64,000 nucleotides of DNA from Dehalococcoidia bacterium (GCA_030612025.1 JAUWOR010000001.1:96001-160000), one strand, 5' to 3'; shown: positions 19,685 through 36,705, counted from the first letter of the stretch. Numbers and translations: made by a program. The notes: generated by a model not told the origin, from the sequence alone.

Positions 19685-19709
19685 AAATTCGAAGACTTTT
19701 CAGGATCAA

Positions 19710-19850
19710 AGGGTGTTCAAAAATGTAGTACGAGGCTTTAGCCTCGTGCACGACCCTAAAGGGTCGCACTACGAGAATCTTGGAGGTGAAGAGTATTAAA
19801 ACTGGATGAGACAAATCCAGTTTTGAATCTGAGGCAAAATTAAACAGCCT
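19710..19850 (+). mobile_element. 141-bp MITE with internal REP doublet
   Basis: AGGGTGTTCAAAAA ... AATTAAACAGCCT termini; colinear with 29551-29691. Confidence 0.8.
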
Positions 19851-19871
19851 CGGGTCAAGTAAGGAGGTAGG

Positions 19872-20789: not shown

Positions 20790-21118
20790 TCTGGGCATAA
20801 ATGAAAAGCCCCCATTTATCATTTCAAATATGCCAGAGCAAGCTCACGAGCTTGCCTGTGAACAGTTGGCAAGTATAGATATAGAAGAGATATACAGCAA
20901 AACTGGTGCCCAATATATCATTTCGAGGAGCGAAGCGCCGGATGCCAGGAGTTGCTAGCCACTTTCCGGTGTTTTCCCAAAAGGCTATAAGGTCCTTTTT
21001 AAACCACTTCGGTAGAGAGTCTGAGTTGCTAACAGATGCTGCCGCCAAACCGGAGGCCGTAAGGCAAACTAGGCTGATGTATCCGAGAGCATTAACGCCT
21101 TCCACCAAGTACCTGTAA

Positions 21119-22066
21119 TTATTGCCTCCCCAATTCTTCAAGGGAAGTGCGAGGATAAAGACCACTAGCCTCACAGATCTCTGGAACAACTTCTTCCCAT
21201 TCAATAGCCATGATATGGATACCTGCTACCCCTTCTATTTCCTTCAGACTGTTTATGGTTTCCACGGCAATTTTTATCCCGTCCTTCCGCACTTGCTCCC
21301 TAGTAGTAGCCTTGCGAAGGCGCTCAATGAGCTCATCGGGAACGTCCACCCCAGAAAGCTTTGTCTTCATATATCTCGCTATGGCTACAGATTTTAGTGG
21401 AGTAATACCGGCAAGGATTTTTACTTTCTTGTGCAGTTCCCTCTCCCGAACCATTTCCATCCATCTTTCAAACTTCTTAATGTGATAAACACTTTGAGTT
21501 TGTATAAAGTCCGCCCCGGCAGCAACTTTCTCCCCGAGGCGAATCACTTCGTGCTCCGTGGGCTCGGCAAAGGGGCTTGTTACTGCCCCAATGAAAAGTC
21601 TTGGTTCTCTTCCAGCTATTAACTCCCCATTCTCAAACTTTTTTTCATCCCGGAGTCCTTTGACCATCCTGATAACTTGGATAGAATCGAGGTCGAAAAC
21701 GGATTTTGCCTCAGGGCAATTTCCAAAAGAAACAGGATCACCGGAGAGACAAAGTATGTTATTCACACCAAACGTGGAGATGCCCAAAATGTCCATCTGG
21801 AGAGCAATTCGATTTCTGTCACGACAAGTCATTTGCACTATGGGATCAAGCCCTTCTTGTTTCCCTATAAGGCAGGCTGCCCAGCTTGCCATCGCTACCA
21901 CCGCTGACTCTCCATCCGGAACATTAAAAGCATCAACATAGCCTTTAACAAGATTAGCTTTTTCCCTTATCACCTCGGGTTCCGTATTCCGAGGGGGACC
22001 GATTTGAGCAGTCACGGCAAAATATCCTGCTTCGAGTACCCTTTCTAGGTTGCTTTTCGTCTTCAC
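21119..22066 (-). CDS. metF: Methylenetetrahydrofolate reductase MetF (copy 2, convergent paralog)
   Basis: Same N-terminus MKTKSNLERVLEAG as copy 1; TCRDRNR, GADFIQTQ; GTG start. Confidence 0.92.
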   Translation of the reverse strand: MKTKSNLERVLEAGYFAVTAQIGPPRNTEPEVIREKANLVKGYVDAFNVPDGESAVVAMASWAACLIGKQEGLDPIVQMTCRDRNRIALQMDILGISTFGVNNILCLSGDPVSFGNCPEAKSVFDLDSIQVIRMVKGLRDEKKFENGELIAGREPRLFIGAVTSPFAEPTEHEVIRLGEKVAAGADFIQTQSVYHIKKFERWMEMVRERELHKKVKILAGITPLKSVAIARYMKTKLSGVDVPDELIERLRKATTREQVRKDGIKIAVETINSLKEIEGVAGIHIMAIEWEEVVPEICEASGLYPRTSLEELGRQ

Positions 22067-22285: not shown

Positions 22286-22311
22286 AATAAACGCTCTCAC
22301 ACCATCAATGC

Positions 22312-22340
22312 TTGCAAAAATCTTTAGAAGTACTTATAAT
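22312..22340 (+). promoter_or_regulatory. Sigma70-type promoter for the kinase-hdr-met operon
   Basis: TTGCAA-17 nt-TATAAT, 12 nt before ATG 22353. Confidence 0.65.
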
Positions 22341-22352
22341 GTAAAACCCGAA

Positions 22353-23495
22353 ATGAAAGCAGTAGTCGAATTGGGCTCAGTTAAGGAAATATTAAAGCAT
22401 TCAGACTTGTTCCGGGGGCTGAGCAACGACGAACTGGATAAGTTGCTACCGCTTTGCCGAGAAGAGGTTTATGAAGCCGGGATAGTTATTTTCCCTGAAG
22501 GCACCCCATGCCATACTATGTATATCGTGGAATCAGGCAAGGTGGCTCTGGAAATGAATCTTCACATTAGTCGGGCGGTAGAGGAAAGTGCCACAATTCA
22601 CGTGGTAACTCAAGGTGGCTGCTTGTGTTGTTCAGGGCTCATAGATCCTTATATTCTTACTGCAACGGGCCGGAGTCTTGAGACAACCAAGGTTATTGCT
22701 TTAGACACGGCGGAGCTTAAAGGTTTGTTCGAAAACAACCCTGAAGTGGGATGTAGGACAATGAATAATCTCGCTAAGGTAGTTTCTTCAAGGCTTAAAC
22801 ACGCTAGGGAGACGATGGGACGCATTCTGTCTGTTATTTTCCATGACCTAAAAGCTCCCCTGGCTGCGGTGGAAAGCTATAATCGGCTCTTGCTCGGTGA
22901 GTTTGCCGGAGAATTAAATGAAGAGCAAAAAAACATAGTGCAAAGGAGTAGTAAGAGACTCTCTGAGCTGCTAAATTTAGTGAGTAACATAATTGATTTT
23001 TCCCGAATTGGTTTCGGGGACTTGAGAATGGAGAGAATTTCTCTGGCAAAAGTGATAGAAGATTGCCTTGAAGCTATGCATCCCCTAGCTGAGGGAAAGG
23101 GGTTGCAACTGGTTGCTGAAGTACCCCGAGAGCTTCCGGCTATTCTTGGAGTTCAAGAGCGGCTTAAACAGGTAGTTAGGAATTTGTTATCCAATGCCAT
23201 TAAGTTTACCCCCTCTGGAGGGGTGGTAACGGTTAAAGCAAAGGATGACATAGATTATGTAGAAGTGGAGGTGGCGGATACCGGAATTGGTATTCCAGCC
23301 AAGGAATTACCCAGGATATTTGACGGTTTTTATCGCGGTCTCGACATAGCTGAAAGGGGAGCTGGCTTAGGGCTTTCTATAACCAAGAGCATAGTTGAGG
23401 CTCACCATGGTAGAATATGGGCTGTGAGTCCCTGTCCGGAAAGCGGTAAGGGGAGCAAGTTTACCTTCATTTTGCCCAAGGATTTGAAAAGGTGA
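22353..23495 (+). CDS. Soluble sensor histidine kinase with N-terminal cNMP-binding (Crp-like) domain
   Basis: LFRGLS..EL...IFPEG..MYIVESGKV; H-box FHDLKAPL; NLLSNAIKF, DTGIGI, GAGLGL. Confidence 0.92.
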   Translation: MKAVVELGSVKEILKHSDLFRGLSNDELDKLLPLCREEVYEAGIVIFPEGTPCHTMYIVESGKVALEMNLHISRAVEESATIHVVTQGGCLCCSGLIDPYILTATGRSLETTKVIALDTAELKGLFENNPEVGCRTMNNLAKVVSSRLKHARETMGRILSVIFHDLKAPLAAVESYNRLLLGEFAGELNEEQKNIVQRSSKRLSELLNLVSNIIDFSRIGFGDLRMERISLAKVIEDCLEAMHPLAEGKGLQLVAEVPRELPAILGVQERLKQVVRNLLSNAIKFTPSGGVVTVKAKDDIDYVEVEVADTGIGIPAKELPRIFDGFYRGLDIAERGAGLGLSITKSIVEAHHGRIWAVSPCPESGKGSKFTFILPKDLKR

Positions 23496-23547
23496 GGAGA
23501 AGATTAAATAAGTTGCCCAACTAAAACCAGTCAGCGGAGTAAGGTAG

Positions 23548-23973
23548 ATGGCTAAGATTCTGATAGTAGATGATGACCCTGATATTCGAATAGCAATTAG
23601 TAGTGTGTTAAAGTCACGTTCCTACGAGGTAATTGAAGCTCGTGATGGAGAGGAAGCTCTAACCAGGCTAAAAGAACAAAAACCAGACTTAATGCTCTTA
23701 GATCTCCTGCTGCCAAAGATGGATGGCTTTGCTGTTGTCAAGGAACTGCAGAACACCCAGTGGAGTGAGTATCACAATATGCCCATTTTAATTATAAGCT
23801 CGGTGAGAGAGGAGGCCAGCCAACGCCGCTATGAGTTGGAAACTGGTCATCGACTCGGTGCTGAAGACTATATAGAAAAACCCATCGAGCCATTTGCCTT
23901 ACTTAAGCGCATAAAGAAGCTCTTATCGAAGGGAGGGGAAGATGCAGAAGCAAACCAAAATCCTCGTGATTGA
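23548..23973 (+). CDS. Single-domain response regulator (receiver only)
   Basis: ILIVDDD, LLDLLLPKMDG, YIEKP. Confidence 0.92.
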   Translation: MAKILIVDDDPDIRIAISSVLKSRSYEVIEARDGEEALTRLKEQKPDLMLLDLLLPKMDGFAVVKELQNTQWSEYHNMPILIISSVREEASQRRYELETGHRLGAEDYIEKPIEPFALLKRIKKLLSKGGEDAEANQNPRD

Positions 23974-24349
23974 CGATGACCCTGATTTACAGACAGTAGT
24001 GAAGAGCGTGCTTGAAAGCAAGTCCTATCAGGTGGTTGCTGCGCTTGATGGAAATGAAGGTTTGCGGAAGGTAGTGGATGAAAGGCCTGATTTAATTATC
24101 TTAGACGTGATAATGCCAGGTAAAAGTGGGTTCGAGGTTTGCCGAGAAATCAAGACTGATCCCAAATATTACTTCTTCTCTCACATTCCCGTGCTGATGC
24201 TAACTGTCTATCCTGATGATAGAGAAAAGATGCATCTCTCTATGCGAGAGGGGATGACAATGGAGGCAGAAGACTACCTACACAAGCCCTTCGATCCCAA
24301 AGAACTACTGAATCGAGTGGAGGAATTACTAAAAAAAGAAGCTAAATAG
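23942..24349 (+). CDS. Single-domain response regulator (receiver only)
   Basis: ILVIDDD, ILDVIMP, YLHKPF. Confidence 0.92.
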   Translation: MQKQTKILVIDDDPDLQTVVKSVLESKSYQVVAALDGNEGLRKVVDERPDLIILDVIMPGKSGFEVCREIKTDPKYYFFSHIPVLMLTVYPDDREKMHLSMREGMTMEAEDYLHKPFDPKELLNRVEELLKKEAK

Positions 24350-25593
24350 TGAATAAGTCTACTGTAGTTATTGGCGGTGGCATAAGTGGAATAACTTCAG
24401 CATTAGAATTAGCCAATAGCGGCTTTAGAGTATACTTAATCGAGAGAGAAGCAGCAATTGGAGGGCAAGCTGCTTCTTTTTGTTGTAAAGCAACGGAGGT
24501 TTGCACTAAATGCTCTGTCTGCCTTGTCCCCCAAAGCTTAGCTAAGGTGGCAGTCCACCCTCGAATCTCGATCTTGACCGACTCGATGGTGGCAGGGTTA
24601 AGCGGCGAAATCGGAGATTTTAAGGTCGAGGTGCTTCAAAAGCCTCAATACATTACCCCAGAAAGATGTATCGCTTGCGGAATATGTGCTGAGGTTTGTC
24701 CTACCGAGCCGAAGGCAATCCTTCCACCTTCTCCAGAGGCAATCCCTTATTGTTATGTCATCGATGAAAGGCTATGTCTTCGCCTCAGAGGTGAGAAGTG
24801 CAACCTCTGTCAGGGAATATGTCCCACGGACGCTATAGCCTTTGACCTTAAACCTGAAAGGCAAGAACTGAGTGTCGGCGCAATTATCGTCGCCACCGGC
24901 TTCGAAGTCTTTAACGCCCGAGAAATTGGCTCCCTGGGTTATGGTAGATATCCTAATGTCTTGACTGGCCTCGACCTGGAGAGGATTTTTAATCGTGAGG
25001 GCTATCTTAAACTTCCCACAAATGGAAAGGAGCCAAAAAACATTGCCTTCGTCCAATGTGTCGGCTCCAGAGACGAAAGTCATGGCTATTGCTCCCAGGT
25101 ATGCTGTAAGTACGCCATGAGGTTCGCTCGGCTTATTAAGTATCAAAATCCTGATGCCCAGGTGACTATCTTCTATATTGATCTTCAGACTGCCGGGAAG
25201 GGTTTTGCCCAGTTTTATCAGGAGTGTCGGGAAAGTATTCGATTTATCCGAGGAGTACCAGTTGAAATTTTACAGACCCCCTCCAGCGAACTTGAAGTGA
25301 GGTTTGAGAATATTTCAGAAGGAAAGGTTGAACGAGAAACCTTTGACCTGGTAACCCTTTCGGTAGGCATCGCCCCTAGGAAAGATTCCTGGGATTTGGC
25401 CAGGATTTTGGGAATAAATTTAGCAGACTATGGCTTCTTCGATACTAAGGAGCCTTTTAATTCCGTAGAGACCAATGTCGAGGGGATTTTCCTCGCCGGA
25501 ACTTGTCAAGGTCCCAAAGATATCCCTGATTCGATCGCTCATGGAATAGCAGCGGCAGAGAGGGTGATGGAGGTTTTAGAAAAATGCCAGTAA
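24349..25593 (+). CDS. HdrA/QmoA-like FAD/FeS protein
   Basis: GGGISG, two ferredoxin motifs, QCVGSRD..YCSQVCC, GIFLAGTCQGPKDI. Confidence 0.9.
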   Translation: MNKSTVVIGGGISGITSALELANSGFRVYLIEREAAIGGQAASFCCKATEVCTKCSVCLVPQSLAKVAVHPRISILTDSMVAGLSGEIGDFKVEVLQKPQYITPERCIACGICAEVCPTEPKAILPPSPEAIPYCYVIDERLCLRLRGEKCNLCQGICPTDAIAFDLKPERQELSVGAIIVATGFEVFNAREIGSLGYGRYPNVLTGLDLERIFNREGYLKLPTNGKEPKNIAFVQCVGSRDESHGYCSQVCCKYAMRFARLIKYQNPDAQVTIFYIDLQTAGKGFAQFYQECRESIRFIRGVPVEILQTPSSELEVRFENISEGKVERETFDLVTLSVGIAPRKDSWDLARILGINLADYGFFDTKEPFNSVETNVEGIFLAGTCQGPKDIPDSIAHGIAAAERVMEVLEKCQ

Positions 25594-27227
25594 AGCTAGG
25601 CATTTTCCTCTGCGATTGTGGAGGAAGTCTAAAGAATATAAATTCCCCCAAAATTAGGGAAGATTTAGGGAAACTCGAAGACGTCGCCTTTGTAGACATA
25701 AGCCATAATCTATGCCTCGAAGAAGGAGAGAAGGCGATAGCTTCAAGAATCCTGAGGGAAAACGTAAATAGAGTAGTAATCGCTGCTTGCTCACCAGAGT
25801 TATGTGAGGATAAATTTATGAGGCTTCTAGAAGGACTTGGGCTTAACCCTGATCTTCTTTCCATAGCAAATATAAGGGAGCAATGTTCCTGGGCTCATGA
25901 AGGGGATGTTACCGAGAAGGCGTTGGAACTCATAAGAATGGCTATAAATAAAGCTCGGTTGCTTCAGGGTGTGGAAAGAGGGCAGGTTCCAGTAAACAAA
26001 GAGGTTCTCGTGGTAGGCGGAGGATTCTCTGGGATGAAATCATCTCTTGAACTTTCCCAGCTTGGCATTAGGACAACTATAGTGGAAAGAGCGTCAACTT
26101 TGGGAGGGAAGCTTAAGGGGCTAGAAGGGTTTTACGGACTCAAGACAAGCCCGAATGAGATGTTTGGCTCGATGACAAGGGTGATAGAGGAAGATGAAAA
26201 CATCGAAGTTTTTACTTCTGCTGAGGTAGCAAGGGTGCAAGGGGAAGTAGGGGATTTCGCCGTAAGGATAAGAAGCGGGGAAAAGGAATCCTCCCAAAGC
26301 TTTGGGGCTATCATCTTTGCTACCGGATATAGAACTGAAATCTTACCTCAAGATTTTGAGCTTAAGCCCGGTGGTAACATTATCTCGCAGCAAAGGCTTG
26401 TCGAGATGCTTCAAGCTCCAGAGAAGTTAGCACGAAGACCCGAAACTATAGGTTTTGCCCTTGATTTCTCCGATGAAAATTCTCGTCTTCCTACGCTCTC
26501 CGCTCTGAAGAATGCTTTGGCAGTCAAAGACAAGCTAGGGAGCGAAGTCTACGTGTTCTGTAAGAATCTGAAGGTGGATAGTGAAGGGGCGGAGAAGCTT
26601 TACCGAGAAGCGAGGGACCGGGGAGTAGTGTTTTTGAAATTTGAAGAAAAACCACGGATATATGGGGAGGATAGTCGAATAAAGGTCGAGGCAAGGGATG
26701 TTCTTCTAGGTGAGGAGGTAACGCTCCTCTGTGACCTCTTGGTGGCTGAGGAAAAAGCTTTGCCCCCTGAAGGAACCAAAGCCCTAAGTTCTATGCTAAA
26801 CATAGAAACCGACTCCCAGGGTTTTTATCAAGACGAAAATGTGCATCTTTATCCCGTGGCATCAGGCAGGAAAGGGGTGTTTTTTGTTGGGGGTTGTCGA
26901 GGGAGCTTAGATCTCGGCCGAGCTTCAACCGATATCGCATCTGCTGTTGGGAGCGTTCATGAGCTTTTATCATCAGGGGAGGCAATGGTGGAGGTGGAGA
27001 AAGTGAAGGCGGATAGTCAAAAGTGCCGAGCCTGCCTCACTTGCATCCGCGTTTGCCCCCATGAAGCAATTCGGCTAGTCCGAGTGGACAGCGAAAGGTG
27101 GGTGGCCAAAATCTATGACCTTGCCTGCGATGGATGCGGTATTTGTGCCGCTATTTGCCCAGCAACGGCGATAAAGTTTGAAGGTTATAGTGATGAGCAA
27201 ATCCTGGCCGAAGTCGAGGCAATATAA
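25584..27227 (+). CDS. HdrA/QmoB-like FAD/FeS protein (divergent)
   Basis: GIFLCDCG, AACSP, NIREQCSWAH, VVGGG, C-terminal 2x[4Fe-4S]; lacks CVGSR/YCSxxCC. Confidence 0.85.
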   Translation: MPVKLGIFLCDCGGSLKNINSPKIREDLGKLEDVAFVDISHNLCLEEGEKAIASRILRENVNRVVIAACSPELCEDKFMRLLEGLGLNPDLLSIANIREQCSWAHEGDVTEKALELIRMAINKARLLQGVERGQVPVNKEVLVVGGGFSGMKSSLELSQLGIRTTIVERASTLGGKLKGLEGFYGLKTSPNEMFGSMTRVIEEDENIEVFTSAEVARVQGEVGDFAVRIRSGEKESSQSFGAIIFATGYRTEILPQDFELKPGGNIISQQRLVEMLQAPEKLARRPETIGFALDFSDENSRLPTLSALKNALAVKDKLGSEVYVFCKNLKVDSEGAEKLYREARDRGVVFLKFEEKPRIYGEDSRIKVEARDVLLGEEVTLLCDLLVAEEKALPPEGTKALSSMLNIETDSQGFYQDENVHLYPVASGRKGVFFVGGCRGSLDLGRASTDIASAVGSVHELLSSGEAMVEVEKVKADSQKCRACLTCIRVCPHEAIRLVRVDSERWVAKIYDLACDGCGICAAICPATAIKFEGYSDEQILAEVEAI

Positions 27228-27422: not shown

Positions 27423-27815
27423 ATGACCAGAGAAAATAAAAAAATTATCGCTTTTTGCTGCGCTGAGTCAGCATATCGGGCAGCCAATAGAGCCGGGAGG
27501 CTCAGGATTCGCTACCCAGATAATGTAAGAGTCATTCGGGTCCCTTGTGCTGGAAGGGTGAGCGTGCTTCACATTCTCAAAGCTTTTGAAAAGGGCGCCG
27601 CTGGAGTGCTGGTGATGGGCTGTCAGGAAGGCGCTTGTCGCCATCTAACGGGCAACATTAGGGCAAAGGAAAGGGTAAAGTATGCCAAAGACTTGCTCAA
27701 AGAAGTAGGAATAAATGGACAGCGAGTAAAAATGGTCAATTTCGGCCCTGACATGGCTCAAAAATTCGCCCGTGAGATCGAGGAGATGGTGGAAAAAATT
27801 CACCCTGTGAAATAA
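27423..27815 (+). CDS. mvhD: MvhD/FlpD-like [2Fe-2S] subunit
   Basis: IIAFCC, RVPCAGRV, GADG-like GVLVMGC..GACRH..GN. Confidence 0.88.
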   Translation: MTRENKKIIAFCCAESAYRAANRAGRLRIRYPDNVRVIRVPCAGRVSVLHILKAFEKGAAGVLVMGCQEGACRHLTGNIRAKERVKYAKDLLKEVGINGQRVKMVNFGPDMAQKFAREIEEMVEKIHPVK

Positions 27816-27840: not shown

Positions 27841-28503
27841 ATGATAATCGCCGCAAGGAAGCCTTTGGAGGAAATTAGAAATATGCTTGCTGGGTATAAA
27901 AGGATTCTGGTGGTGGGGTGTGGAACCTGTGTCACCATATGTTGGGCCGGTGGAGAGAAAGAGGTGGGAATACTTTCTTCCCAGCTTAGGCTTGCCTCAA
28001 GCAAAGATGGAAATGAACTTTCTGTCATGGAAGCGGTAGTCGAAAGACAATGCGAAAAAGAGATGGTGATTGAAGAACTTGGAGATAAAGTGCCCGGAGT
28101 GGAAGCGATTCTCTCTATGGGCTGTGGGGTTGGAGTGCAAACGATAGCTGAGGTATTTGAGGAAAAGCCCATCTTCCCAGCGCTTAACACCACATTCATG
28201 GGAATGCCCGAGGCAGAAGGAGTTTGGACTGAGAAATGTGGGGCTTGCGGAGATTGTCTGCTTTATTGGACTGGAGGGATCTGTCCGGTTGTACGCTGCG
28301 CTAAAGGGCTCCTCAACGGGCCTTGTGGTGGCACAAGGAAGGGTGGGAAATGCGAAATAGACCCAGAAAAGGATTGTGCCTGGGTTCTTATCTACCGAAG
28401 ACTGGAAAAACAGGGAAGGCTCAATCTGATGAGGAAGTATTATGAGCCTAAGAACTACCGGGCAGTGAAAAGGCCCGGGAAGATTGAAGCCTTGGAGGCT
28501 TAA
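27841..28503 (+). CDS. metV: MetV subunit (copy 2)
   Basis: GCGTCVTIC, RQCE, CGVGVQ, CGACGDC..TGGICPVVRCAKGLLNGPCGG. Confidence 0.9.
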   Translation: MIIAARKPLEEIRNMLAGYKRILVVGCGTCVTICWAGGEKEVGILSSQLRLASSKDGNELSVMEAVVERQCEKEMVIEELGDKVPGVEAILSMGCGVGVQTIAEVFEEKPIFPALNTTFMGMPEAEGVWTEKCGACGDCLLYWTGGICPVVRCAKGLLNGPCGGTRKGGKCEIDPEKDCAWVLIYRRLEKQGRLNLMRKYYEPKNYRAVKRPGKIEALEA

Positions 28504-28521: not shown

Positions 28522-29418
28522 ATGGCAAGACCTTTCAGAGAAATGCTTAAAACGAAGGATTTTATTGTAACCGCTGAGGCTGGGCCAGAAAAAGGGTCAA
28601 ATATCGCGAAGCTGGTTGAGCATATTGAGCTTCTCAAAGACAGGGTAGATGGTCTAAATGTGACTGATAATCAAAGCGCTGTGATGAGGTACCCTTCTCT
28701 TGGGACTTGCCTACTCATTAAGGAGCATGGCGGGGAGCCAATTCTCCAGATCACTTGCCGGGATCGGAATCGCCTGGCAATTCAAGCAGACCTTCTTTTT
28801 GCTTACTCCAGAGGAATAAATAATGTCCTTTGTCTCACCGGTGATGCTATCGACACGGGTGACCATAAAGAAGCAAAGCCCGTCTTCGACCTTGATTCAG
28901 TTCAGTTAATTCATCTTGTTCATACATTGAACTCTGGAAAAGATATGGTAGGAAACGAACTTGATGGAGGTGTTGATTTTTGTATCGGGGCATCTGCTAC
29001 TCCCTCGGCAGACCCTATCGAGCCTCAACTTCTGAAATTCCAAAAAAAACTGGATGCCGGGATGGACTTCATTCAAACTCAAGCTGTTTATGATATGGAT
29101 GAGCTCAAAAGATTCATGGAGAATTTCCATAAGATGGATCATATTGACGGGGTGAAGATTTTAGCTGGGGTAGTTCCTATCTGGGGAGCAAAGATGGCAA
29201 GATATATGAACGAAAATGTTCCCGGAATATATGTTCCTCAGTATTTAATCGACGAAATAGACCAAGCTCCTAAAGGAACAAAAGCAGCCAAAGGAATAGA
29301 AATGACTGGAAGGCTCATAAGGCAGATAAAGGAGGAGAAAATTTGTGACGGGGTTCATGTTATGGCTATTGGAAGAGAGGAAAGGGTTCCTGCGATTCTG
29401 GAAGCTGCGGGAATTTAA
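28522..29418 (+). CDS. metF: Methylenetetrahydrofolate reductase MetF (copy 3)
   Basis: NVTDNQSA, TCRDRNRLA, CLTGD, VFDLDS, FIQTQ, GVHVM. Confidence 0.93.
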   Translation: MARPFREMLKTKDFIVTAEAGPEKGSNIAKLVEHIELLKDRVDGLNVTDNQSAVMRYPSLGTCLLIKEHGGEPILQITCRDRNRLAIQADLLFAYSRGINNVLCLTGDAIDTGDHKEAKPVFDLDSVQLIHLVHTLNSGKDMVGNELDGGVDFCIGASATPSADPIEPQLLKFQKKLDAGMDFIQTQAVYDMDELKRFMENFHKMDHIDGVKILAGVVPIWGAKMARYMNENVPGIYVPQYLIDEIDQAPKGTKAAKGIEMTGRLIRQIKEEKICDGVHVMAIGREERVPAILEAAGI

Positions 29419-29424
29419 AATACC

Positions 29425-29545
29425 CTTCTGCCACCCTGAGCCCCTCGCTCATTGTCATTATGAGGGAGTGAAGTGACCGAAGAATCTCGCTCAGGGGTAA
29501 ACTCCGCGAAGGGTCGAGAGATTCTTCGCTGCGGTCAGAGCCTAC
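29425..29545. repeat. Compound REP-like element
   Basis: GAAGAATCTCGCTCAGGGGTAAACTCCGCGAAG is near-identical to the reverse complement of part of 4478-4590. Confidence 0.75.
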
Positions 29546-29550
29546 AAGGG

Positions 29551-29691
29551 AGGGTGTTTAAAAATGTAGTGCGACCCTTTAGGGTCGTGCACGAGGCTAA
29601 AGCCTCGCACTACGAAAATTTTGGGGTGAATGGGTATTAAAACTGAATGAGATAAATCTAGTTTTGAATTTGAGGCAAAATTAAACAGCCT
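29551..29691 (+). mobile_element. 141-bp MITE with internal REP doublet
   Basis: AGGGTGTTTAAAAA ... AATTAAACAGCCT termini; colinear with 19710-19850. Confidence 0.8.
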
Positions 29692-29717
29692 TAAACAAGG
29701 AGTAAGGAGGTGGGAAA

Positions 29718-30197
29718 TTGACTGTAGTCTTAAACGAGCAAGACACTAAATTCAAATATGATGTGGCTGAAGAGCCTGGCGGAGAGAATATCAAACTTTG
29801 CTTTGCCTGTGGGCTCTGCACCGCTAGTTGTCCTGTGGCAGACATTGACCCTGGATATAATCCTCGAAAGATAATCCGCATGGTTCTCCTGGGAATGAGA
29901 AAGGAAGTCCTTTCATCAAATTTGCCCTGGCTTTGCACCCAGTGCTACACCTGCCAAGCTCACTGCCCTCAGAACGTGAAATTCTCCGATGTAATGAAGG
30001 CATTAAGGAGCATGGCGGTGCGGGAAGGATATGTCCATCCTTCTTTCCTTGAGCAGATAAAAGAGATTGACTCCTTCTCGCAGAAGTCACGCCATCAAAT
30101 GGTGCTATCCGTTGTAGATAAGAAATCTGAGGAAATGAAGGTAGACCCGACTAAGCTTGCTGAGGAGGCACTGGAAAAGGAGAAGGCGAAAGTTTAG
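29718..30197 (+). CDS. hdrC: Heterodisulfide reductase subunit C-like ferredoxin
   Basis: CFACGLCTASCP...PRKIIRMVLLG...WLCTQCYTCQAHCP. Confidence 0.88.
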   Translation: MTVVLNEQDTKFKYDVAEEPGGENIKLCFACGLCTASCPVADIDPGYNPRKIIRMVLLGMRKEVLSSNLPWLCTQCYTCQAHCPQNVKFSDVMKALRSMAVREGYVHPSFLEQIKEIDSFSQKSRHQMVLSVVDKKSEEMKVDPTKLAEEALEKEKAKV

Positions 30198-30209: not shown

Positions 30210-30635
30210 ATGGAAGCTAAGGATAAGCCTATAGGAGCAGCACTGGTGGTTGGGGGGGGAATCGGAGGGATTCAAGCAGCACTCGATTTAGCCGAGTCCG
30301 GGTATAAGGTCTACTTGGTGGAAAAATCTCCCGCCATCGGCGGAGTTATGGCTCAGCTTGATAAGACCTTTCCTACTTTAGACTGTTCCATGTGTATCCT
30401 CTCCCCAAAACTTATCGAATGTGGAAGACACCCTAATATTGAACTCTTAACCTATTCGGACATCCTGGATGTTAAAGGAGAGCCGGGGAAATTTAAGGTA
30501 AAAGTCAGGAAGCGCGCAAGGTCTATCGATCTTGAGAAATGTACCGGCTGCGGTATTTGTTACAACAGTTGTCCTGTGAAATATAAGCCTCAACTTAAAG
30601 AAGGAGGATATCATGGTCACGGTGGAACTCGATAA
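30210..30635 (+). CDS. HdrA N-terminal segment (split gene)
   Basis: VVGGGIGG, EKSPAIGG.MAQLDKTFPTLDCSMCILSPK, CTGCGICYNSCP, then stops. Confidence 0.88.
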   Translation: MEAKDKPIGAALVVGGGIGGIQAALDLAESGYKVYLVEKSPAIGGVMAQLDKTFPTLDCSMCILSPKLIECGRHPNIELLTYSDILDVKGEPGKFKVKVRKRARSIDLEKCTGCGICYNSCPVKYKPQLKEGGYHGHGGTR

Positions 30636-31074
30636 AGTTGATGAAATCATAGATAGATATGTAGGTGAAGAAGGGATTTTGATTCAATTGTTGTTGGATA
30701 TACAGAGCGAATTAAATTGGATCCCTAAGGAAGCCTTGGAGCGAATAAGCGAGAGGCTCAAGGTGCCAGTAAGCCAGATATATCGTATAGCCAGCTTTTA
30801 TAAAGCCATGAGCCTGACCCCAAGAGGGAAGCATATAATAAATGTCTGCCTCGGCACTGCCTGCCACGTGCGAGGAGGTCCGAGGATTATGGATAGGGCA
30901 AAGCAGATTTTGGGCATAGACGCCGGAGAGACAACCCCGGATATGCAGTTCACTCTGGAAAGGGTTAATTGCCTCGGCTGTTGCGCCTTAGGGCCAGTGA
31001 TGGTAGTTGATAGAGATTACCATGGCAAGATAACACCAGCAAAGGTAAAAGAGATTATCGAGACCTGTGATTAG
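30613..31074 (+). CDS. NuoE/HydC-like [2Fe-2S] subunit
   Basis: VCLGTACHVRG, VNCLGCCALGP. Confidence 0.93.
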   Translation: MVTVELDKVDEIIDRYVGEEGILIQLLLDIQSELNWIPKEALERISERLKVPVSQIYRIASFYKAMSLTPRGKHIINVCLGTACHVRGGPRIMDRAKQILGIDAGETTPDMQFTLERVNCLGCCALGPVMVVDRDYHGKITPAKVKEIIETCD

Positions 31075-31081
31075 GGGGGCT

Positions 31082-33004
31082 ATGCCAAAATTAAATTCAC
31101 CTGCTGAACTGGAGAAGCTTAGGCAAGATATATTGTCTAAAAGGGATCCTAACAAGCGCTGCATTGCTATATGCGCTGGTACTGGCTGCCTTGCTCTTGG
31201 TTGCGGCAAAGTTATCACGGCCTTTAAAGAAGAAGTTAGAAAACAGGGTTTGGAAGGCAAGATAGACATTAGGGAGACAGGATGTCCTGGCTTTTGTGAA
31301 AACGGCACTGTAGTTACTATTTATCCTGAGGGGATTTTCTATATAAAAGTGATGCCGGAAGATGCCACTGAGATCATCTCGCAAACTATAATTGAGAAAA
31401 AGGTAATCGAACGTTTGCTTTATGTCGATCCCGCCACAAATGAAAAGGTGGCTCATGAGAAGGACGTCCCTTTCTACAAATATCAAACACGTATTTTGAT
31501 TGGTAATAACTCTAAGCTTGATCCTAAAAGCATGGATGATTATATTGCTCTTGGTGGCTATAGTTCCTTAGCCAAAGCACTTTCCCATATGACACCTGAG
31601 CAAGTCTTAGAGGAAGTAAAGAAATCGAACATTAGGGGCAGGGGAGGAGGAGGATTTCCCGCGGGAAGGAAGTGGGAGAGTGTACGTAATGCACCTGGAG
31701 AACCTAAGTATGTAATAGTCAACTGCGATGAGGGAGACCCCGGGGCTTTTATGAATAGAGCATTAATGGAAGGAAATCCTCATAGTGTGCTTGAAGGCTT
31801 AACTATCGGAGCTTATGCTATAGGTTCCCACGAGGGCTTCATTTATGTTCGTGCTGAGTATCCTTTGGCGGTGGAAAATGTTGGTATTGCTATCAGGCAA
31901 GCTGAGAAATACGGCCTTCTAGGCGAGAATATCCTTGGCTCAGGGTTTAACTTCGAAGTAAAGGTGCATCGAGGTGCGGGAGCCTTTGTCTCCGGTGAAT
32001 CAAGCGCCCTAATGACGGCCATAGAGGGGAGAGTAGGGGAGCCCAGGCCCAAGTACGTTCATACCTCCGAGAAGGGCATTTGGGACAGTCCCAGTTGTCT
32101 CAATAATGTGGAGACTTGGGCTAATGTACCTCTCATCATCAATAATGGAGCTGATTGGTTTGATTCCATTGGGAGTGAGAGGAATACAGGGACTAAGATA
32201 TTCTCTTTAGTGGGTAAGGTTAATAACACGGGGTTAGTGGAAGTGCCTCTAGGTACCTCCCTACAGCACATTATCTATAAAATCGGTGGTGGTATCCCAG
32301 GAGGCAAGAAGTTTAAGGCAGTTCAAACCGGCGGCCCGTCCGGAGGTTGTATCCCTGAAAAATTCCTCGATGCCCCTGTGGATTATGACGAACTCGCCAA
32401 GCTGGGCGCAATAATGGGTTCTGGTGGCATGATTGTCATGGATGAAGATACTTGCATGGTTGACACCGCGAGATATTTCCTCGATTTCCTCGCCGATGAA
32501 TCGTGTGGAAAATGCACCCCATGCCGTGAGGGTATTAGACAAATGTTAGGGATTTTGACTGACATCTGTGAAGGAAGAGGTAAGGAAGGGGATATCGAGC
32601 TCCTAGAAGAGTTAGCTGAAGTAGTTAAGGATACCTCACTCTGTGCCTTGGGGGGCACTGCACCTAATCCGATTTTAACCACCCTTCACTATTTTAGGGA
32701 TGAGTATAAAGCACACATTGAACAAAAGAAATGCCCCGCTTTTGTTTGCAAGGAATTGCTCTCATATTATATTGACCCAGCTAAATGCCAGGCTTGCCTG
32801 ATCTGTCTGAGAAACTGCCCTACAGGTGCCATTGATGGAGGCAAAGGGAAAATTCATGTGATTGACCAGAGCAAGTGCACTAAATGCGGCACCTGTTTTG
32901 ACATCTGTCCCGATCGCTTTAATGCCGTAGCCAGGATCTCTGGTGAGCCTGTCCCCCCACCACCTTCAGAAGAAGAAAGGGTTATTGTTAGGGTTGAAAA
33001 ATAG
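31082..33004 (+). CDS. NuoF/HydB-like FMN/NAD(P)H-binding subunit with extra FeS domains
   Basis: N-terminal [2Fe-2S] (CAGTGC..GCPGFC), RGRGGGGFP, DEGDPGAFM, GGPSGG, ESCGKCTPCREG, C-terminal 2x[4Fe-4S]. Confidence 0.93.
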   Translation: MPKLNSPAELEKLRQDILSKRDPNKRCIAICAGTGCLALGCGKVITAFKEEVRKQGLEGKIDIRETGCPGFCENGTVVTIYPEGIFYIKVMPEDATEIISQTIIEKKVIERLLYVDPATNEKVAHEKDVPFYKYQTRILIGNNSKLDPKSMDDYIALGGYSSLAKALSHMTPEQVLEEVKKSNIRGRGGGGFPAGRKWESVRNAPGEPKYVIVNCDEGDPGAFMNRALMEGNPHSVLEGLTIGAYAIGSHEGFIYVRAEYPLAVENVGIAIRQAEKYGLLGENILGSGFNFEVKVHRGAGAFVSGESSALMTAIEGRVGEPRPKYVHTSEKGIWDSPSCLNNVETWANVPLIINNGADWFDSIGSERNTGTKIFSLVGKVNNTGLVEVPLGTSLQHIIYKIGGGIPGGKKFKAVQTGGPSGGCIPEKFLDAPVDYDELAKLGAIMGSGGMIVMDEDTCMVDTARYFLDFLADESCGKCTPCREGIRQMLGILTDICEGRGKEGDIELLEELAEVVKDTSLCALGGTAPNPILTTLHYFRDEYKAHIEQKKCPAFVCKELLSYYIDPAKCQACLICLRNCPTGAIDGGKGKIHVIDQSKCTKCGTCFDICPDRFNAVARISGEPVPPPPSEEERVIVRVEK

Positions 33005-33013
33005 GAGACTGCC

Positions 33014-36000
33014 ATGGAAGGAAAAGAAATCACTTTAGAGATTGATAGCAGGGAAGTAAAAGCCAGGGAAGGGATGACGATTTTGGAGGCGGCGAAAAGT
33101 GCAGGCATTAACATACCTACACTTTGCTATCATCCTGCCTTAACCCCTTTCGGTGCTTGCCGCATTTGCAGTGTAGAGATTGTGCAAAGAGGAAGGTCGA
33201 GGATAGTTACCTCTTGCGTCTACCCTGTTGAGGAAGGGCTGGTGGTTAAGACCAAAAGTGATAGGGTAATAAGGGATCGCAAGATGCTCATTGAGCTTAT
33301 GCTCGCTCACGCCCCTAAGGCTAAGGTGATACAGGAGCTAGCCCATGAGTATGGTGTTGAGAGGACAAGATTTAAGATAGAAGATGAAGAAAACCTTTGT
33401 ATCCTTTGCGGTTTATGCGCTCGAATCTGTGAGGAGAGGATGGGGAAAAGTGCGATTAACTTTGTTGGAAGGGGAGTTAACAGAAAAGTAGATACTCCCT
33501 TCCATATTCAGACAGAAGATTGCATGGCCTGCGGAGCCTGTGCCTTTGTCTGCCCTACAGGGGCCATTAAACTTGAGGATATTACTAGGTATAAACTTTT
33601 GCCAATCCCTTCAGAGTTTGATCAAGGTTTAAGCTCGCGATCCCCAATTTATATCCCCTATCCTCAAGGAGTTCCTAATGTTCCGGTGATAGACCGAGAT
33701 AAATGTGTTCATTTCCTTACCGGGGAGTGTGGAATTTGCCAAGAAGTCTGCCAGGCAGGGGCAATTGATTACAAGCAGGAAGATGAGATTGTTGAAATAG
33801 ATGTGGGGGCAATAATTTTAGCCCCGGGATTTGATGAATTTGACCCAAGCCCTCTTTTCAATTACGGATACAGGAGATATCCCAATGTAGTAACCAGTAT
33901 AGAATTCGAGAGGATGCTTTCAGCTTCAGGACCATTTCAAGGTGAGCTGCGCAGGCCCTTTGATAGAAAGCCGCCTCAAAGGATAGCCTGGATTCAATGC
34001 ATTGGTTCGAGGGATGAAAGCTTGGGTTGCGGATATTGCTCTTCCGTGTGCTGCACCTATGCCATAAAGGAAGCTATTGTGGCCAAAGAGCACGTCCCCT
34101 CTGAGTTAGAGGAAACTATCTTCTTCATGGATATAAGAACACACGGGAAGGACTTTGATAAATTTTATGAGCGCGGGAAGGAAGAAGGAATAGACTTCGT
34201 AAGGGCGAAGGTCTATGGAGTTGAAGAAGTAGATGGCACAGGGAATTTGAGCCTCAAGTATGTCGGTGAAGATGATAGGCCAAGCACGGATGAGTTTGAT
34301 TTAGTTGTCCTATCTGTAGGGCTTAGGCCCTCTCAGGAAGCTATTGAACTTGGCAAGAGGCTCGGCATCCAGCTTAATAAATATGGATTTTGCCACACAA
34401 GTGCATTTTCCCCCGTGGAAACCTCCAAGCCAGGGGTATTTGTCTGCGGTGCTTTTCAAGGCCCGAAGGACATCCCGGAAACAGTGATGCAGGCAAGTGG
34501 GGCAGCGGGAAGCGCTTCTACCTTGCTTGCTCCTGCCCGAAATACCCTTACCATAAGGAAAGAATACCCGCCGGAAAAGGATGTCACCGGGGAGGAGCCC
34601 AGGATTGGGGTGTTTATCTGCCACTGTGGTATCAACATCGGTGGATATGTGGATGTTCCTGAGGTTACTGAATATGTTAAAACTCTGCCCAATGTAGCCT
34701 ATGCTGAAAATAACCTCTACACCTGCTCTCAAGATACCCAAGAGAAAATCAAGGCAATGATCGAGGAACATAATCTGAATCGAGTGGTGGTGGCATCCTG
34801 CACTCCCAGAACCCACGAGCCCCTGTTCCGAGAAACCCTCAAAGAGGCAGGATTAAACCAATACCTCTTTGAGATGTCCAATATCCGCGACCAGTGCTCC
34901 TGGGTCCATATGCATGAGCCGGAGAAAGCGACTGAGAAGGCGAAGGATTTGGTAAGGATGGCGGTGGCAAAGGCAAGGCTGATAGAGCCACTAAAACCTT
35001 TGTCTACCCCAGTTAACCACTCCGCTTTGGTCATTGGGGGAGGTGTGGCAGGGATGATAAGCGCTTTAACCTTAGCGGATCAAGCTTTCGAAGTCCATCT
35101 TATCGAGAGAGAAAGCGAACTCGGCGGGGTGGTGAAAAGAATACATTATACCCTTGATAGTGAGGATGCTCAGATTTTTCTCGCCGATTTAATTAGAAGG
35201 GTTAAGGAACATCCTAAGATTAGGGTCTATTACAATACTTGGATTGTAGATGCCTACGGATATGTGGGGAACTTCACCACCGAGATAATGAGATATCGCG
35301 GCAGGGTTATAGAGAAGATAGACCACGGCGTGACCATAATTGCCACTGGGGCTCAGGAATATAAACCGAAGGAATACCTTTACGGAAGAGACCCACGGGT
35401 GCTCACTCAGCTTGAGCTTGAGGAGGAGATAGCGAGAGGGAATCCAGATATAGTAGGCTGTGACAACCTGGTAATGATCCAGTGCGTAGGCTCCCGAAAT
35501 GGGGAGCGCCCATATTGTAGCCGGGTATGCTGCAACCAGGCAATTAAGAATGCCCTAAAGCTTAAAGAGACAAAGCCCGAAATGAATATCTATATCCTCT
35601 ATCGGGATATGAGGACATATGGATTCTATGAGGAATATTATCAGGAGGCAAGACAAAAGGGGGTTATCTTCCTGAGGTATGATCCAGAAGATAAACCTCG
35701 GCTAAGTCAAGAAAGGAAGAATGGACGCTTTTTGATACGAGTTGAAGGGAAGGACCCGGTGCTCGGGGAGGAAGTAGCTATTGATGCCGATATTATTGCT
35801 CTAGGCGTGGCGATGGTTCCCCCGGAAGAGGCAAGAGAGCTTGCCATGCTTTACAAAGTGCCTTTAAACGAGGATGGCTTCTTCCTGGAAGCACATGTAA
35901 AACTTCGCCCGGTGGACTTCGCCACAGACGGAGTCTTTCTCTGTGGGCTTGCTCATGCTCCCAAGTCAATCAAAGAGAGCATTGCTCAGGCTAAAGCAGC

Positions 36001-36283
36001 CGCTTCTCGAGCAACCACTATACTAGCCAAAGAGACTATTACGGCTGAGGGCATTGTTTGCTCTGTAAATGAGGATATCTGCAGCGGTTGTGGCATCTGT
36101 GAAGTTCTTTGCCCTTACGGGGCTATCGTGGTAAATAAGGAAAGAAAGGTAGCCGAGGTCAATGAGGCTCTGTGCAAAGGATGCGGCACCTGCTGCGCTG
36201 CCTGCCCTTCAGGAGCTGCCCAACAGAGGGGCTTCACGAGAGACCAAATTGCATCTATGGTTGAAACTGCTTTGGTCGTTTAA
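33014..36283 (+). CDS. NuoG/HydA-N-like FeS domain fused to the remainder of a double HdrA
   Basis: IPTLC..GACRIC..TSC [2Fe-2S] and 2x[4Fe-4S]; then SEFDQGL..PIYIPYPQ, QCIGSRD..YCSSVCC, RIGVFICHCG, GGGVAG, QCVGSR..YCSRVCC, C-terminal ferredoxin. Confidence 0.9.
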   Translation: MEGKEITLEIDSREVKAREGMTILEAAKSAGINIPTLCYHPALTPFGACRICSVEIVQRGRSRIVTSCVYPVEEGLVVKTKSDRVIRDRKMLIELMLAHAPKAKVIQELAHEYGVERTRFKIEDEENLCILCGLCARICEERMGKSAINFVGRGVNRKVDTPFHIQTEDCMACGACAFVCPTGAIKLEDITRYKLLPIPSEFDQGLSSRSPIYIPYPQGVPNVPVIDRDKCVHFLTGECGICQEVCQAGAIDYKQEDEIVEIDVGAIILAPGFDEFDPSPLFNYGYRRYPNVVTSIEFERMLSASGPFQGELRRPFDRKPPQRIAWIQCIGSRDESLGCGYCSSVCCTYAIKEAIVAKEHVPSELEETIFFMDIRTHGKDFDKFYERGKEEGIDFVRAKVYGVEEVDGTGNLSLKYVGEDDRPSTDEFDLVVLSVGLRPSQEAIELGKRLGIQLNKYGFCHTSAFSPVETSKPGVFVCGAFQGPKDIPETVMQASGAAGSASTLLAPARNTLTIRKEYPPEKDVTGEEPRIGVFICHCGINIGGYVDVPEVTEYVKTLPNVAYAENNLYTCSQDTQEKIKAMIEEHNLNRVVVASCTPRTHEPLFRETLKEAGLNQYLFEMSNIRDQCSWVHMHEPEKATEKAKDLVRMAVAKARLIEPLKPLSTPVNHSALVIGGGVAGMISALTLADQAFEVHLIERESELGGVVKRIHYTLDSEDAQIFLADLIRRVKEHPKIRVYYNTWIVDAYGYVGNFTTEIMRYRGRVIEKIDHGVTIIATGAQEYKPKEYLYGRDPRVLTQLELEEEIARGNPDIVGCDNLVMIQCVGSRNGERPYCSRVCCNQAIKNALKLKETKPEMNIYILYRDMRTYGFYEEYYQEARQKGVIFLRYDPEDKPRLSQERKNGRFLIRVEGKDPVLGEEVAIDADIIALGVAMVPPEEARELAMLYKVPLNEDGFFLEAHVKLRPVDFATDGVFLCGLAHAPKSIKESIAQAKAAASRATTILAKETITAEGIVCSVNEDICSGCGICEVLCPYGAIVVNKERKVAEVNEALCKGCGTCCAACPSGAAQQRGFTRDQIASMVETALVV

Positions 36284-36285
36284 AA

Positions 36286-36705
36286 ATGAACAAGGAAGAA
36301 TTTGAACCAAAGATATTAGCTTTTTGCTGTAACTGGTGTGCTTATGCCGGTGCTGACCTCGCTGGTGTATCACGAATGCAGTATCCACCGAATATAAGGA
36401 TCATTAGGGTTATGTGTTCTGGTAGGGTGGAACCTGAGTTCGTTCTTAAAGCTTTTACCCTTGGTGCCGATGGGGTGCTAGTCCTTGGCTGCCACCCTGG
36501 AGATTGCCATTACTTATCTGGTAACTATAAAACAATGAGGAGAGTGCCGTTAACAAAGAGGCTTTTAGAACAGTTTGGGGTAGAACAGGAGAGATTGAAG
36601 TTGGAGTGGGTTTCGGCAGCTGAGGGAGCAAGATTTGCGCAAGTAGTAACTGATTTTACCAGCAAGGTAAAGGAATTGGGACCAAATCCACTAAAAGGAA
36701 GTTAA
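36286..36705 (+). CDS. mvhD: MvhD [2Fe-2S] subunit
   Basis: AFCCNWCAYAGADLAG, RVMCSGRV, GADGV..GCHPGDCHY..GN. Confidence 0.95.
   Translation: MNKEEFEPKILAFCCNWCAYAGADLAGVSRMQYPPNIRIIRVMCSGRVEPEFVLKAFTLGADGVLVLGCHPGDCHYLSGNYKTMRRVPLTKRLLEQFGVEQERLKLEWVSAAEGARFAQVVTDFTSKVKELGPNPLKGS

Follow-up and report, generated by a model that had tools for sequence, protein, structure and literature searches.

A HydBC-type NAD/ferredoxin module within a split hdrA gene of a Dehalococcoidia bacterium: a candidate two-stage electron-bifurcating complex

Background

What becomes of HdrA, a flavoprotein that can bifurcate electrons, when its gene is cut in two by the genes of another bifurcating enzyme? The question is raised by a stretch of 64,000 nucleotides from Dehalococcoidia bacterium (GCA_030612025.1 JAUWOR010000001.1:96001-160000; the window, i.e., the whole stretch at its full length), where positions 30,210 to 36,705 hold a front piece of HdrA, a cassette of genes resembling nuoE, nuoF and part of nuoG, and the remainder of HdrA. 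An earlier note, made from the sequence alone, interpreted this arrangement as a potential double-bifurcating complex, in which an NAD(P)H/ferredoxin input module is grafted into the ferredoxin insertion of HdrA and linked through MvhD to the methylene-tetrahydrofolate (methylene-THF) reductase MetVF. Our analysis of the window and of its host genome (1.4 Mb, 95.6% complete) indicates that the two HdrA pieces belong together and that the cassette is a Bfu (HydBC-type) module, and it suggests a different direction of electron flow and a different connection to MetVF.

Two complementary pieces of one HdrA

All five open reading frames (ORFs) that the earlier note had described as an hdrA split by a NuoE-NuoF-NuoG' cassette are present on the plus strand: hdrA-N, the front piece of HdrA module 1 (30210-30635, 141 aa); bfuC (30613-31074, 153 aa), whose start overlaps the end of hdrA-N by 23 nt; bfuB (31067-33004, 645 aa); a BfuA-HdrA fusion (33014-36283, 1089 aa); and the adaptor gene mvhD2 (36286-36705, 139 aa). 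Residues 10-125 of the front piece match the HdrA chain 5odc_A at positions 145-260 (E 1.6e-47). The front piece carries the GxGxxG motif (residues 13-20) that binds flavin adenine dinucleotide (FAD) and the C59/C62 pair, and it stops, as claimed, after the first half of an inserted 2[4Fe-4S] ferredoxin domain, with its one CxxCxxCxxxC motif at residue 111 (C111-C121). The 1089-aa protein was likewise described correctly as resuming HdrA after a NuoG-like FeS domain and then adding a second module. It begins with a BfuA domain (residues 1-192, 33014-33589; one [2Fe-2S] plus a 2[4Fe-4S] domain), in which residues 9-189 match BfuA 9mqx_A (E 1.6e-45). HdrA then resumes near position 258 of 5odc_A (match to 243-510) with the rest of module 1 (residues 196-515, 33599-34558), comprising the second half of the inserted ferredoxin domain and a domain resembling thioredoxin reductase (TrxR), with E299 and K352. 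The second HdrA module (residues 521-1089, 34574-36283) has an N-terminal cluster domain, a TrxR-like domain and, at the C-terminal end, a 2[4Fe-4S] domain and matches 5odc_A at 2-241 and 466-647.

The two pieces are complementary. Aligned to full-length HdrA, a check that the note had proposed, they cover positions 141-261 and 257-562 of the NCBIfam model NF040770, i.e., they abut. The 1089-aa protein has a single GxGxxG motif (residue 673, in module 2) and no CxxC pair, and for module 1 both are carried by the front piece. Residues E299 and K352 of the fusion are the module 1 equivalents of E356 and K409 of 5odc_A, the K409 equivalent being present in 118 of 120 listed homologues, and the TrxR-like domain of module 2 has neither a CxxC pair nor an inserted ferredoxin. 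The two TrxR-like domains of a type II (tandem) HdrA are found when both pieces are counted together, and module 1 has the glutamate, the lysine and the CxxC pair that mark the bifurcating FAD of that type. Three CxxCxxCxxxC motifs occur in the N-terminal part of the 1089-aa ORF (residues 129, 170 and 231), one of them unpaired, and the inserted ferredoxin domain is broken between its two cluster motifs. Each cluster of a 2[4Fe-4S] domain is bound by three cysteines of one motif plus a single cysteine of the other; because the break separates the two motifs, both clusters would be held by two chains. We are highly confident that the two HdrA pieces assemble with each other.

A relative in which all parts form a single chain (P0054, 56-65% identical to the window pieces) was modelled from an input of 105 sequences; an earlier model from 8 sequences was poor, with a predicted local distance difference test score (pLDDT) of 58, and was set aside. 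The model (pLDDT 82.6, predicted template modelling score 0.75) superposes on 5odc_A 142-569 over 425 aligned residues with a root mean square deviation (rmsd) of 3.2 A and Z 36, and its insert superposes on BfuA 9mqx_A over 215 residues (rmsd 3.9 A, Z 19.5). Because of the superposition on 5odc_A, the TrxR-like and ferredoxin domains appear to be rebuilt from both parts with the insert looped out, and for the two window pieces a joint fold as a single tandem (type II) HdrA is predicted. The 9mqx_A alignment, on model residues 149-412, extends beyond the BfuA core into the ferredoxin half of HdrA.

The architecture is widespread. A search with fusion residues 1-300 gave 1413 protein clusters at E<=1e-60, and 120 listed ones were examined. 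The BfuA-to-HdrA junction is common to all 120 and is thus not a product of chance; the hosts are tandem (type II) in 97, single-module (type I) in 17, partial in 1 and single-chain in 5, the last with front piece, BfuA and rest of the module in one polypeptide. The closest relatives of the 1089-aa fusion (97% identical) are in Dehalococcoidia records, and matches also occur in records titled or named Ignavibacteriota, Thermotogae, WOR-3 and Poribacteria. Of 400 genomes of the window's class, 9 had a full-length match to the fusion, as did 16 of 400 from the phylum of genome G401 (Desulfobacterales), which places the design in about 2-4% of sampled genomes from two large anaerobic groups.

Is the front piece still in use? 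We compared 38 fusion-bearing loci (11 of 17 from the nearest-relative search, 10 from the window's class and 17 from genomes of the G401 phylum; L001/L002, L003/L008, L061/L063 and L064/L065 are near-copies), which amounts to the survey across genomes that the note had suggested. The front piece lies less than 8 kb upstream of the fusion in 34 of the 38, as a separate ORF in 21 and fused to BfuC in 13, with bfuC and bfuB between front piece and fusion in 33 of the 34, and every one of the 34 copies ends in an intact cluster motif. The ratio of nonsynonymous to synonymous substitution rates (dN/dS) of hdrA-N over 125 codons is 0 against L001, 0.038 against L002 and 0.077 against L005, as low as in the neighbouring genes. 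The case that would have undone the earlier interpretation, a decaying pseudogene not conserved with the cassette, is contradicted by these ratios and by the presence in 34 of 38 loci. We rejected the pseudogene reading of the 141-aa ORF because of purifying selection and co-occurrence; judged by selection on its codons, the front piece is functional. One could still suppose that an insertion destroyed module 1 and left the front piece behind as a decaying remnant, given its variable, non-conserved tail and the four loci where it is not found within 8 kb. However, two of these four (L055 and L060) have less than 2.6 kb upstream before the contig ends, the other two (L061 and L063) have a 134-aa front-piece ORF 22-25 kb upstream (in G445 alongside hdrC, hdrB and bfuC), and the low dN/dS and the intact motif in all copies make such a remnant scarcely credible.

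In nine loci (L054, L059, L066-L068, L070, L071, L073 and L074) an in-frame TGA stands at the C62 position, the second cysteine of the CxxC pair, and likely encodes selenocysteine; many MvhD genes in these loci also have an in-frame TGA. A split type I hdrA at L051:5510-8250 has the front piece directly before the BfuA fusion with no bfuC or bfuB between, and a 72% identical bfuB is found on another contig. Additional genes occur within the cassette at L010:5253-6680, L015, L069 and L072, those of L010 including one for an [FeFe]-hydrogenase-like 475-aa protein.

Identity of the inserted cassette

Against nine HydB/BfuB chains the NuoF-like protein reaches 638-808 bits (808 to 7t2r_B), compared with at most 357 for non-bifurcating NuoF-type chains. 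The HydB-like features claimed for it (GAFM, GAGAFV, GGPSG and extra N- and C-terminal clusters) were borne out: all motifs and cluster ligands are present, the latter comprising an N-terminal [2Fe-2S] (C36, C41, C73, C77), the B1 [4Fe-4S], two C-terminal [4Fe-4S] and a Zn/B2 site (C463, H550, C556, C561). The Bfu family is defined by the B1-B5 ligand set (PMC9304861; here and below, published sources are cited for the parts of them that were covered), and BfuB has every B1-B5 ligand position along with the FMN (flavin mononucleotide) part of its FMN/NAD site. The other family features are also found, namely the [2Fe-2S] domain of the NuoE/HydC-like BfuC (PF01257, 174 bits) and the [2Fe-2S] and [4Fe-4S] domains of BfuA. 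The latter has the A1, A2 and A4 clusters only; neither a His-ligated cluster motif nor a catalytic C-terminal domain was found in the BfuA domain of the fusion. In enzymes with such a short BfuA, the electrons of the third substrate enter at A4 (PMC12318220), and in the window BfuA is joined, directly after the A4 cluster motif, to the other half of the HdrA ferredoxin domain. An assignment to the N-module of complex I (NuoEFG) was rejected: the TIGR01959 score of 459 bits is below the cut-off of 558.65, extra clusters are present, and the NuoG match covers only residues 9-100. The central claim of a HydBC/Bfu-type NAD/ferredoxin module grafted into the ferredoxin insertion of HdrA is supported, in that the pieces are conserved together, are complementary and have, by sequence, two kinds of bifurcating site.

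Within the cassette, bfuC and the first half of bfuB of L002 (7600-9991) differ from the window (30613-33004) with dS of 0.44-0.50 and local identity down to 64%, the flanking genes having dS of 0.04-0.20. Because this part is far more diverged than its flanks, a recent recombination within the cassette is suggested.

An exchangeable insert at the low-potential port

The earlier note regarded the cassette as an input module. Its position in the inserted ferredoxin domain was seen correctly; the input role does not follow, since this domain is the low-potential exit in solved HdrA complexes and would serve as an input only in reverse. In methanogen HdrA, electrons enter via the C-terminal ferredoxin and MvhD, and low-potential electrons leave via the inserted ferredoxin domain (PMC9012536). 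Similarly, in class II benzoyl-CoA reductase (BCRII) the C-terminal ferredoxin/BamF port receives electrons from BamGHI, and BamBC is reached through the inserted domain (bioRxiv 10.64898/2026.04.10.717634). Because BamGHI enters at the C-terminal port, the cassette of the window sits on the opposite HdrA port, and its wiring differs from that of BamE-I, which the note had listed among related gene sets.

The same port accepts other inserts. A search with hdrC gave 13 places in 12 of 400 genomes of the class: the same operon has a GltD-like insert in the hdrA after hdrC at 8 of them (L091-L095 and L097-L099; three are cut by contig ends) and no insert at 1 (L096), and the arrangement differs at the remaining 4. 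The Bfu insert follows the first cluster motif and the GltD insert stands some 30 residues further, just before the second motif, as judged from the GltD-type gene in the host genome. When 43 HdrA bodies were placed in a tree with the inserts removed, the body from the window fell in a starred clade made up of 7 GltD and 4 Bfu rows, and the three insert states (none, GltD, Bfu) need 8 changes. A single origin of the Bfu-bearing bodies was rejected by the approximately unbiased (AU) test (p 4.6e-44; run after the tree was seen). A tree of 120 BfuA domains, thinned to every third type II protein and free of duplicates, needs 7 changes between type I and type II hosts, with the single-chain forms nested among the others; both are quick trees with long-branch warnings. 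Because the same operon in relatives carries GltD/NfnB in 8 loci and no insert in one, the insert in HdrA is an exchangeable module.

Two MvhD adaptors and the link to MetVF

The split hdrA is the last part of a plus-strand gene series in the order hdrA' (414 aa) and hdrA'' (547 aa), two ORFs of a second, degenerate tandem HdrA (24349-27227); mvhD1 (27423-27815); metV (27841-28503) and metF (28522-29418), the methylene-THF reductase genes, with family matches PF12225 and PF02219; hdrC (29718-30197); and hdrA-N, bfuC, bfuB, the fusion and mvhD2. The clustering of metVF, mvhD, hdrA and hdrC is that of Hdr-type methylene-THF reductases. The note's claim that the MvhD after the fusion provides the link to MetVF could not be upheld. 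In a tree of 46 MvhD rows, all 10 metV-adjacent MvhDs, including MvhD1, fall on one side of a split with 99% support in the Shimodaira-Hasegawa-like approximate likelihood ratio test (SH-aLRT), and MvhD2 falls on the other side, nearest to the MvhD before the Fdh genes in L005. It groups with adaptors that adjoin genes for Mvh hydrogenase, for Fdh or for a set that we take to be Flx-like. The fusion and its mvhD are followed, among the 38 loci, by mvhG in 9, metV in 5, the Flx-like set in 4, fdhA in 4, an FdhB-like gene in 1, an HdrD-like gene in 1 and no recognised partner in 6; no mvhD was found within 4.5 kb after the fusion in the remaining 8. A direct link thus fits 5 of the 38 loci but not the window. 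The genes after adaptors of the MvhD2 type are mvhG-mvhA in L092 and L097 and Fdh genes in L005. Because MvhD1 is on the metV side of the tree and MvhD2 on the other, MetVF probably docks on MvhD1 and the degenerate HdrA, MvhD2 would be a free donor port, and the link of the split HdrA to MetVF is probably indirect.

These data bear on the wiring that the note had in mind, in which Bfu merges electrons of NADH and reduced ferredoxin, passes them into HdrA through the inserted ferredoxin domain and out through the adjacent MvhD to MetVF. In its favor, a MetV-type mvhD and metVF do stand directly after the fusion in the five loci just mentioned, the Bfu module serves as an input in BCRII (bioRxiv 10.64898/2026.04.10.717634), and the Moorella HdrA with a GltD insert oxidises NADH (PMC9430772). 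The place of MvhD2 beyond the 99% SH-aLRT split speaks against it, and so does energetics, since ferredoxin at -500 mV spent on an acceptor at -200 mV would waste energy unless a further arm is driven. We consider this wiring unlikely, though it deserves some weight.

A plainer proposal is that Bfu just replaces GltD as an NADH dehydrogenase, with HdrA relaying electrons to MetVF without bifurcation and MvhD2 idle. The interchangeability of GltD and Bfu inserts and the missing partner gene after mvhD2 agree with it, and no bifurcation is shown for any Hdr-type methylene-THF reductase in the covered part of PMC9430772. An idle adaptor and a mere relay are at odds with the purifying selection on mvhD2 (dN/dS 0.06-0.11), with the retention of all ferredoxin-arm ligands in BfuB and with the E356, K409 and CxxC equivalents kept in module 1, and we regard this proposal as quite unlikely.

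The degenerate HdrA has an intact inserted ferredoxin and an Arg at the K409 position in its 414-aa ORF, and its 547-aa ORF has no cluster motif of the TrxR domain. The HdrC of the window belongs to a 156-159-aa subtype that occurs without hdrB: no hdrB is present in the operon and no stand-alone hdrB in the 95.6% complete genome, where CCG domains were found only in two HdrC-CCG fusions and one 511-aa frame. From this, we infer that HdrC bridges the two HdrA units. An hdrC of the same subtype (59% identical) at L058:3704-4174 is flanked on either side by a tandem hdrA gene, and its cluster lacks metVF.

The operon might instead encode two separate enzymes, Bfu-HdrA-MvhD2 with another high-potential partner (e.g., an HdrD-like protein encoded elsewhere, the genome having two such genes) and MetVF with the 414/547-aa HdrA only. 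Most loci with the cassette lack metVF, and a gap of 299 nt (29419-29717) filled with repeats separates metF from hdrC. On the other hand, L002, L005 and L094-L099 retain the order of genes between hdrA414 and mvhD2, and in L005 the gap measures just 18 nt. An NAD(P)H domain is absent from the 414/547-aa HdrA, which would leave MetVF without an electron source in the operon. We find two separate enzymes improbable.

Surroundings of the operon

The repeats in the metF-hdrC gap are palindromic and have many copies in the genome (three intergenic queries gave 184 BLAST rows, nearly all of them with the query for this gap); we take them to be of the repetitive extragenic palindromic (REP) kind. 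A scan for promoters and terminators gave results near chance (24 vs 20.9 and 25 vs 17.0). Upstream of the operon (22308-24349) are genes for a histidine kinase, presumably with an N-terminal cyclic-nucleotide (cNMP)-type domain, and two response regulators. The genome has four metF and three metV copies (regions 19034-22066 of the window and C5:39635-41210), three of the metF being within the window.

Possible electron donors in the genome are a Mvh hydrogenase, the Flx-like genes and one formate dehydrogenase, which has Bfu-type partners of its own; no RnfD was found in the genome, and there is one Complex1_49kDa match. Another contig region (C5:64190-76426) encodes an HdrD-like protein, a type I HdrA, MvhD, a second HdrD-like protein, a 909-aa HdrA with a GltD-like insert, a 559-aa second module and mvhD-mvhG-mvhA. 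Two further Bfu-type sets are located at C5:666-11331 and C5:78987-85160: one flanks a cluster that we take to be that of carbon monoxide dehydrogenase and acetyl-CoA synthase (CODH/ACS), and the other includes a BfuB of 1026 aa and a formate dehydrogenase of 890 aa.

Discussion

The reading we prefer, to which we give about an even chance, is that two bifurcations operate in series and link H2 or formate, methylene-THF, NAD and ferredoxin. Electrons from H2 or formate would enter via MvhD2 from a partner encoded elsewhere and be split at the FAD of module 1. The high-potential electrons would pass through HdrC to the degenerate second HdrA, MvhD1 and MetVF and reduce methylene-THF. The low-potential electrons (about -390 mV) would reach BfuA by way of the split ferredoxin domain, which would be formed by two chains and has the Bfu module fixed to it, and undergo a second split between NAD+ and ferredoxin. 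The net reaction would be reversible, 4 H2 + 2 methylene-THF + NAD+ + Fd(ox) = 2 methyl-THF + NADH + Fd(red, 2 e-), where Fd is ferredoxin, and could run in reverse during acetate oxidation. In relatives, a GltD/NfnB domain at the same port would hand the low-potential electrons to NAD(P).

Literature potentials of -200 mV for methylene-THF (PMC9430772) and of -280 mV for NAD and -500 mV for ferredoxin (PMC9304861) give a mean acceptor potential of -295 mV, equivalent to equilibrium near 10 Pa H2, the calculated values for HdrA and for Bfu on their own being about 100-700 Pa and about 10,000 Pa, respectively. The same arithmetic gives -290 mV for the GltD form with NADP at -380 mV, and because the two mean potentials are similar, an exchange of GltD and Bfu inserts fits the scheme.

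Several points weigh against operation in series. There is no donor gene after mvhD2 in the window or in L001, L002, L094, L095, L098 and L099, and the bridge from HdrC to the second HdrA is drawn from gene order and the missing hdrB only. The structural model is of a relative rather than of the window's two chains, and HdrA structures were likely in the training set of the predictor. Among related BfuBs, 10 of 37 have Gly at two ligand positions of the N-terminal cluster (possibly an alignment shift), and in five loci (L055, L056, L057, L069 and L070) BfuB is longer and GltD-extended (about 1060-1080 aa where complete), the extension possibly providing a third flavin site. Finally, coupled confurcation and bifurcation was not measurable even for purified BCRII, according to the part of bioRxiv 10.64898/2026.04.10.717634 covered.

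Operation in series seems likely to us, at about the odds given above, and it would tie the reduction of ferredoxin to that of folate where hydrogen or formate is very scarce. More tentatively, and at somewhat less than an even chance, we propose that the locus represents an undescribed and widespread two-stage "Hdr-Bfu" class, whose second stage is fixed to HdrA's low-potential arm by a ferredoxin domain with both clusters held by two chains, and in which a plug-in port (none, GltD/NfnB or Bfu) sets the gearing; in the window the Bfu insert would allow ferredoxin reduction or methyl-THF oxidation at about 10 Pa H2 and would supply the missing second partner of Hdr-type methylene-THF reductases. 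Under the scheme, Wood-Ljungdahl bacteria of the subsurface would have a way to operate where H2 or formate is very low. The Bfu module and the GltD/NfnB domain, found at a known HdrA port in the same operon, also provide a natural comparison for the question of which carriers partner the Hdr-type reductase.

Comparison with known systems

No description of a Bfu cassette inside hdrA was found in the full-text literature covered, a scope that extends to neither supplements nor the main HdrA review. The building blocks and the idea of serial coupling are already known; the contribution of this locus is the metVF context and the swap of inserts in an orthologous operon. The closest known enzyme is BCRII, Bam[(BC)2DEFGHI]2, of Geobacter metallireducens (Bam-Bfu; PMC9304861; bioRxiv 10.64898/2026.04.10.717634), which like the window has a HydBC-type module and a tandem HdrA (BamE) in series and an MvhD-type adaptor. 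BamE, like the HdrA of the window, has a Cys59-Cys62 pair and two FADs, of which one is bifurcating and the other is not. In BCRII, BamI is a separate protein at the C-terminal ferredoxin/BamF port and an intact inserted domain exports low-potential electrons to BamBC, whereas in the window BfuA is fused into the inserted ferredoxin domain, HdrA consists of two chains and the MvhD port is free. None of BamB, BamC and BamD is among the operon ORFs, the rest of the genome not having been searched for BamB. In the literature covered, BCRII (a 2026 preprint) is the one structurally described enzyme that joins two kinds of bifurcation, and the window would be a second, differently wired design.

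HdrL and other type III HdrA proteins (HdrA9-11 of anaerobic methanotrophic archaea (ANME) and the 1487-aa HdrA of Moorella; PMC12054007, PMC9012536, PMC9430772) have a pyridine-nucleotide module in the same ferredoxin domain. Theirs is a GltD/NfnB insert within one chain, whereas the gene is split by BfuC-BfuB-BfuA, which also bring in an FMN site and a ferredoxin arm. The Hdr-type (type IV) methylene-THF reductases HdrCBA-MvhD-MetVF of Moorella thermoacetica and Sporomusa ovata (PMC9430772) and of marine Chloroflexi (PMC5736913) resemble the window in the clustering of metVF, mvhD, hdrC and tandem hdrA; the window differs in having no hdrB, two tandem HdrA units, two MvhD types and Bfu instead of GltD. 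Bfu enzymes of types 1 and 2 with a short BfuA, e.g., WorABCSL (PDB 9MQX; PMC9304861, PMC12318220), share the BfuBC core with all cofactor ligands, the A1/A2/A4 set and the third-substrate side after A4, but the C-terminal partner of BfuA in the window is HdrA, a function absent from the Bfu class list in the covered part of PMC9304861. The MvhAGD-HdrABC complex of methanogens (PDB 5ODC, 8RVU) has the same HdrA fold, bifurcating-FAD residues and MvhD port; in the window HdrA is split, HdrB is missing, and a fused Bfu module replaces the docking site of soluble ferredoxin.

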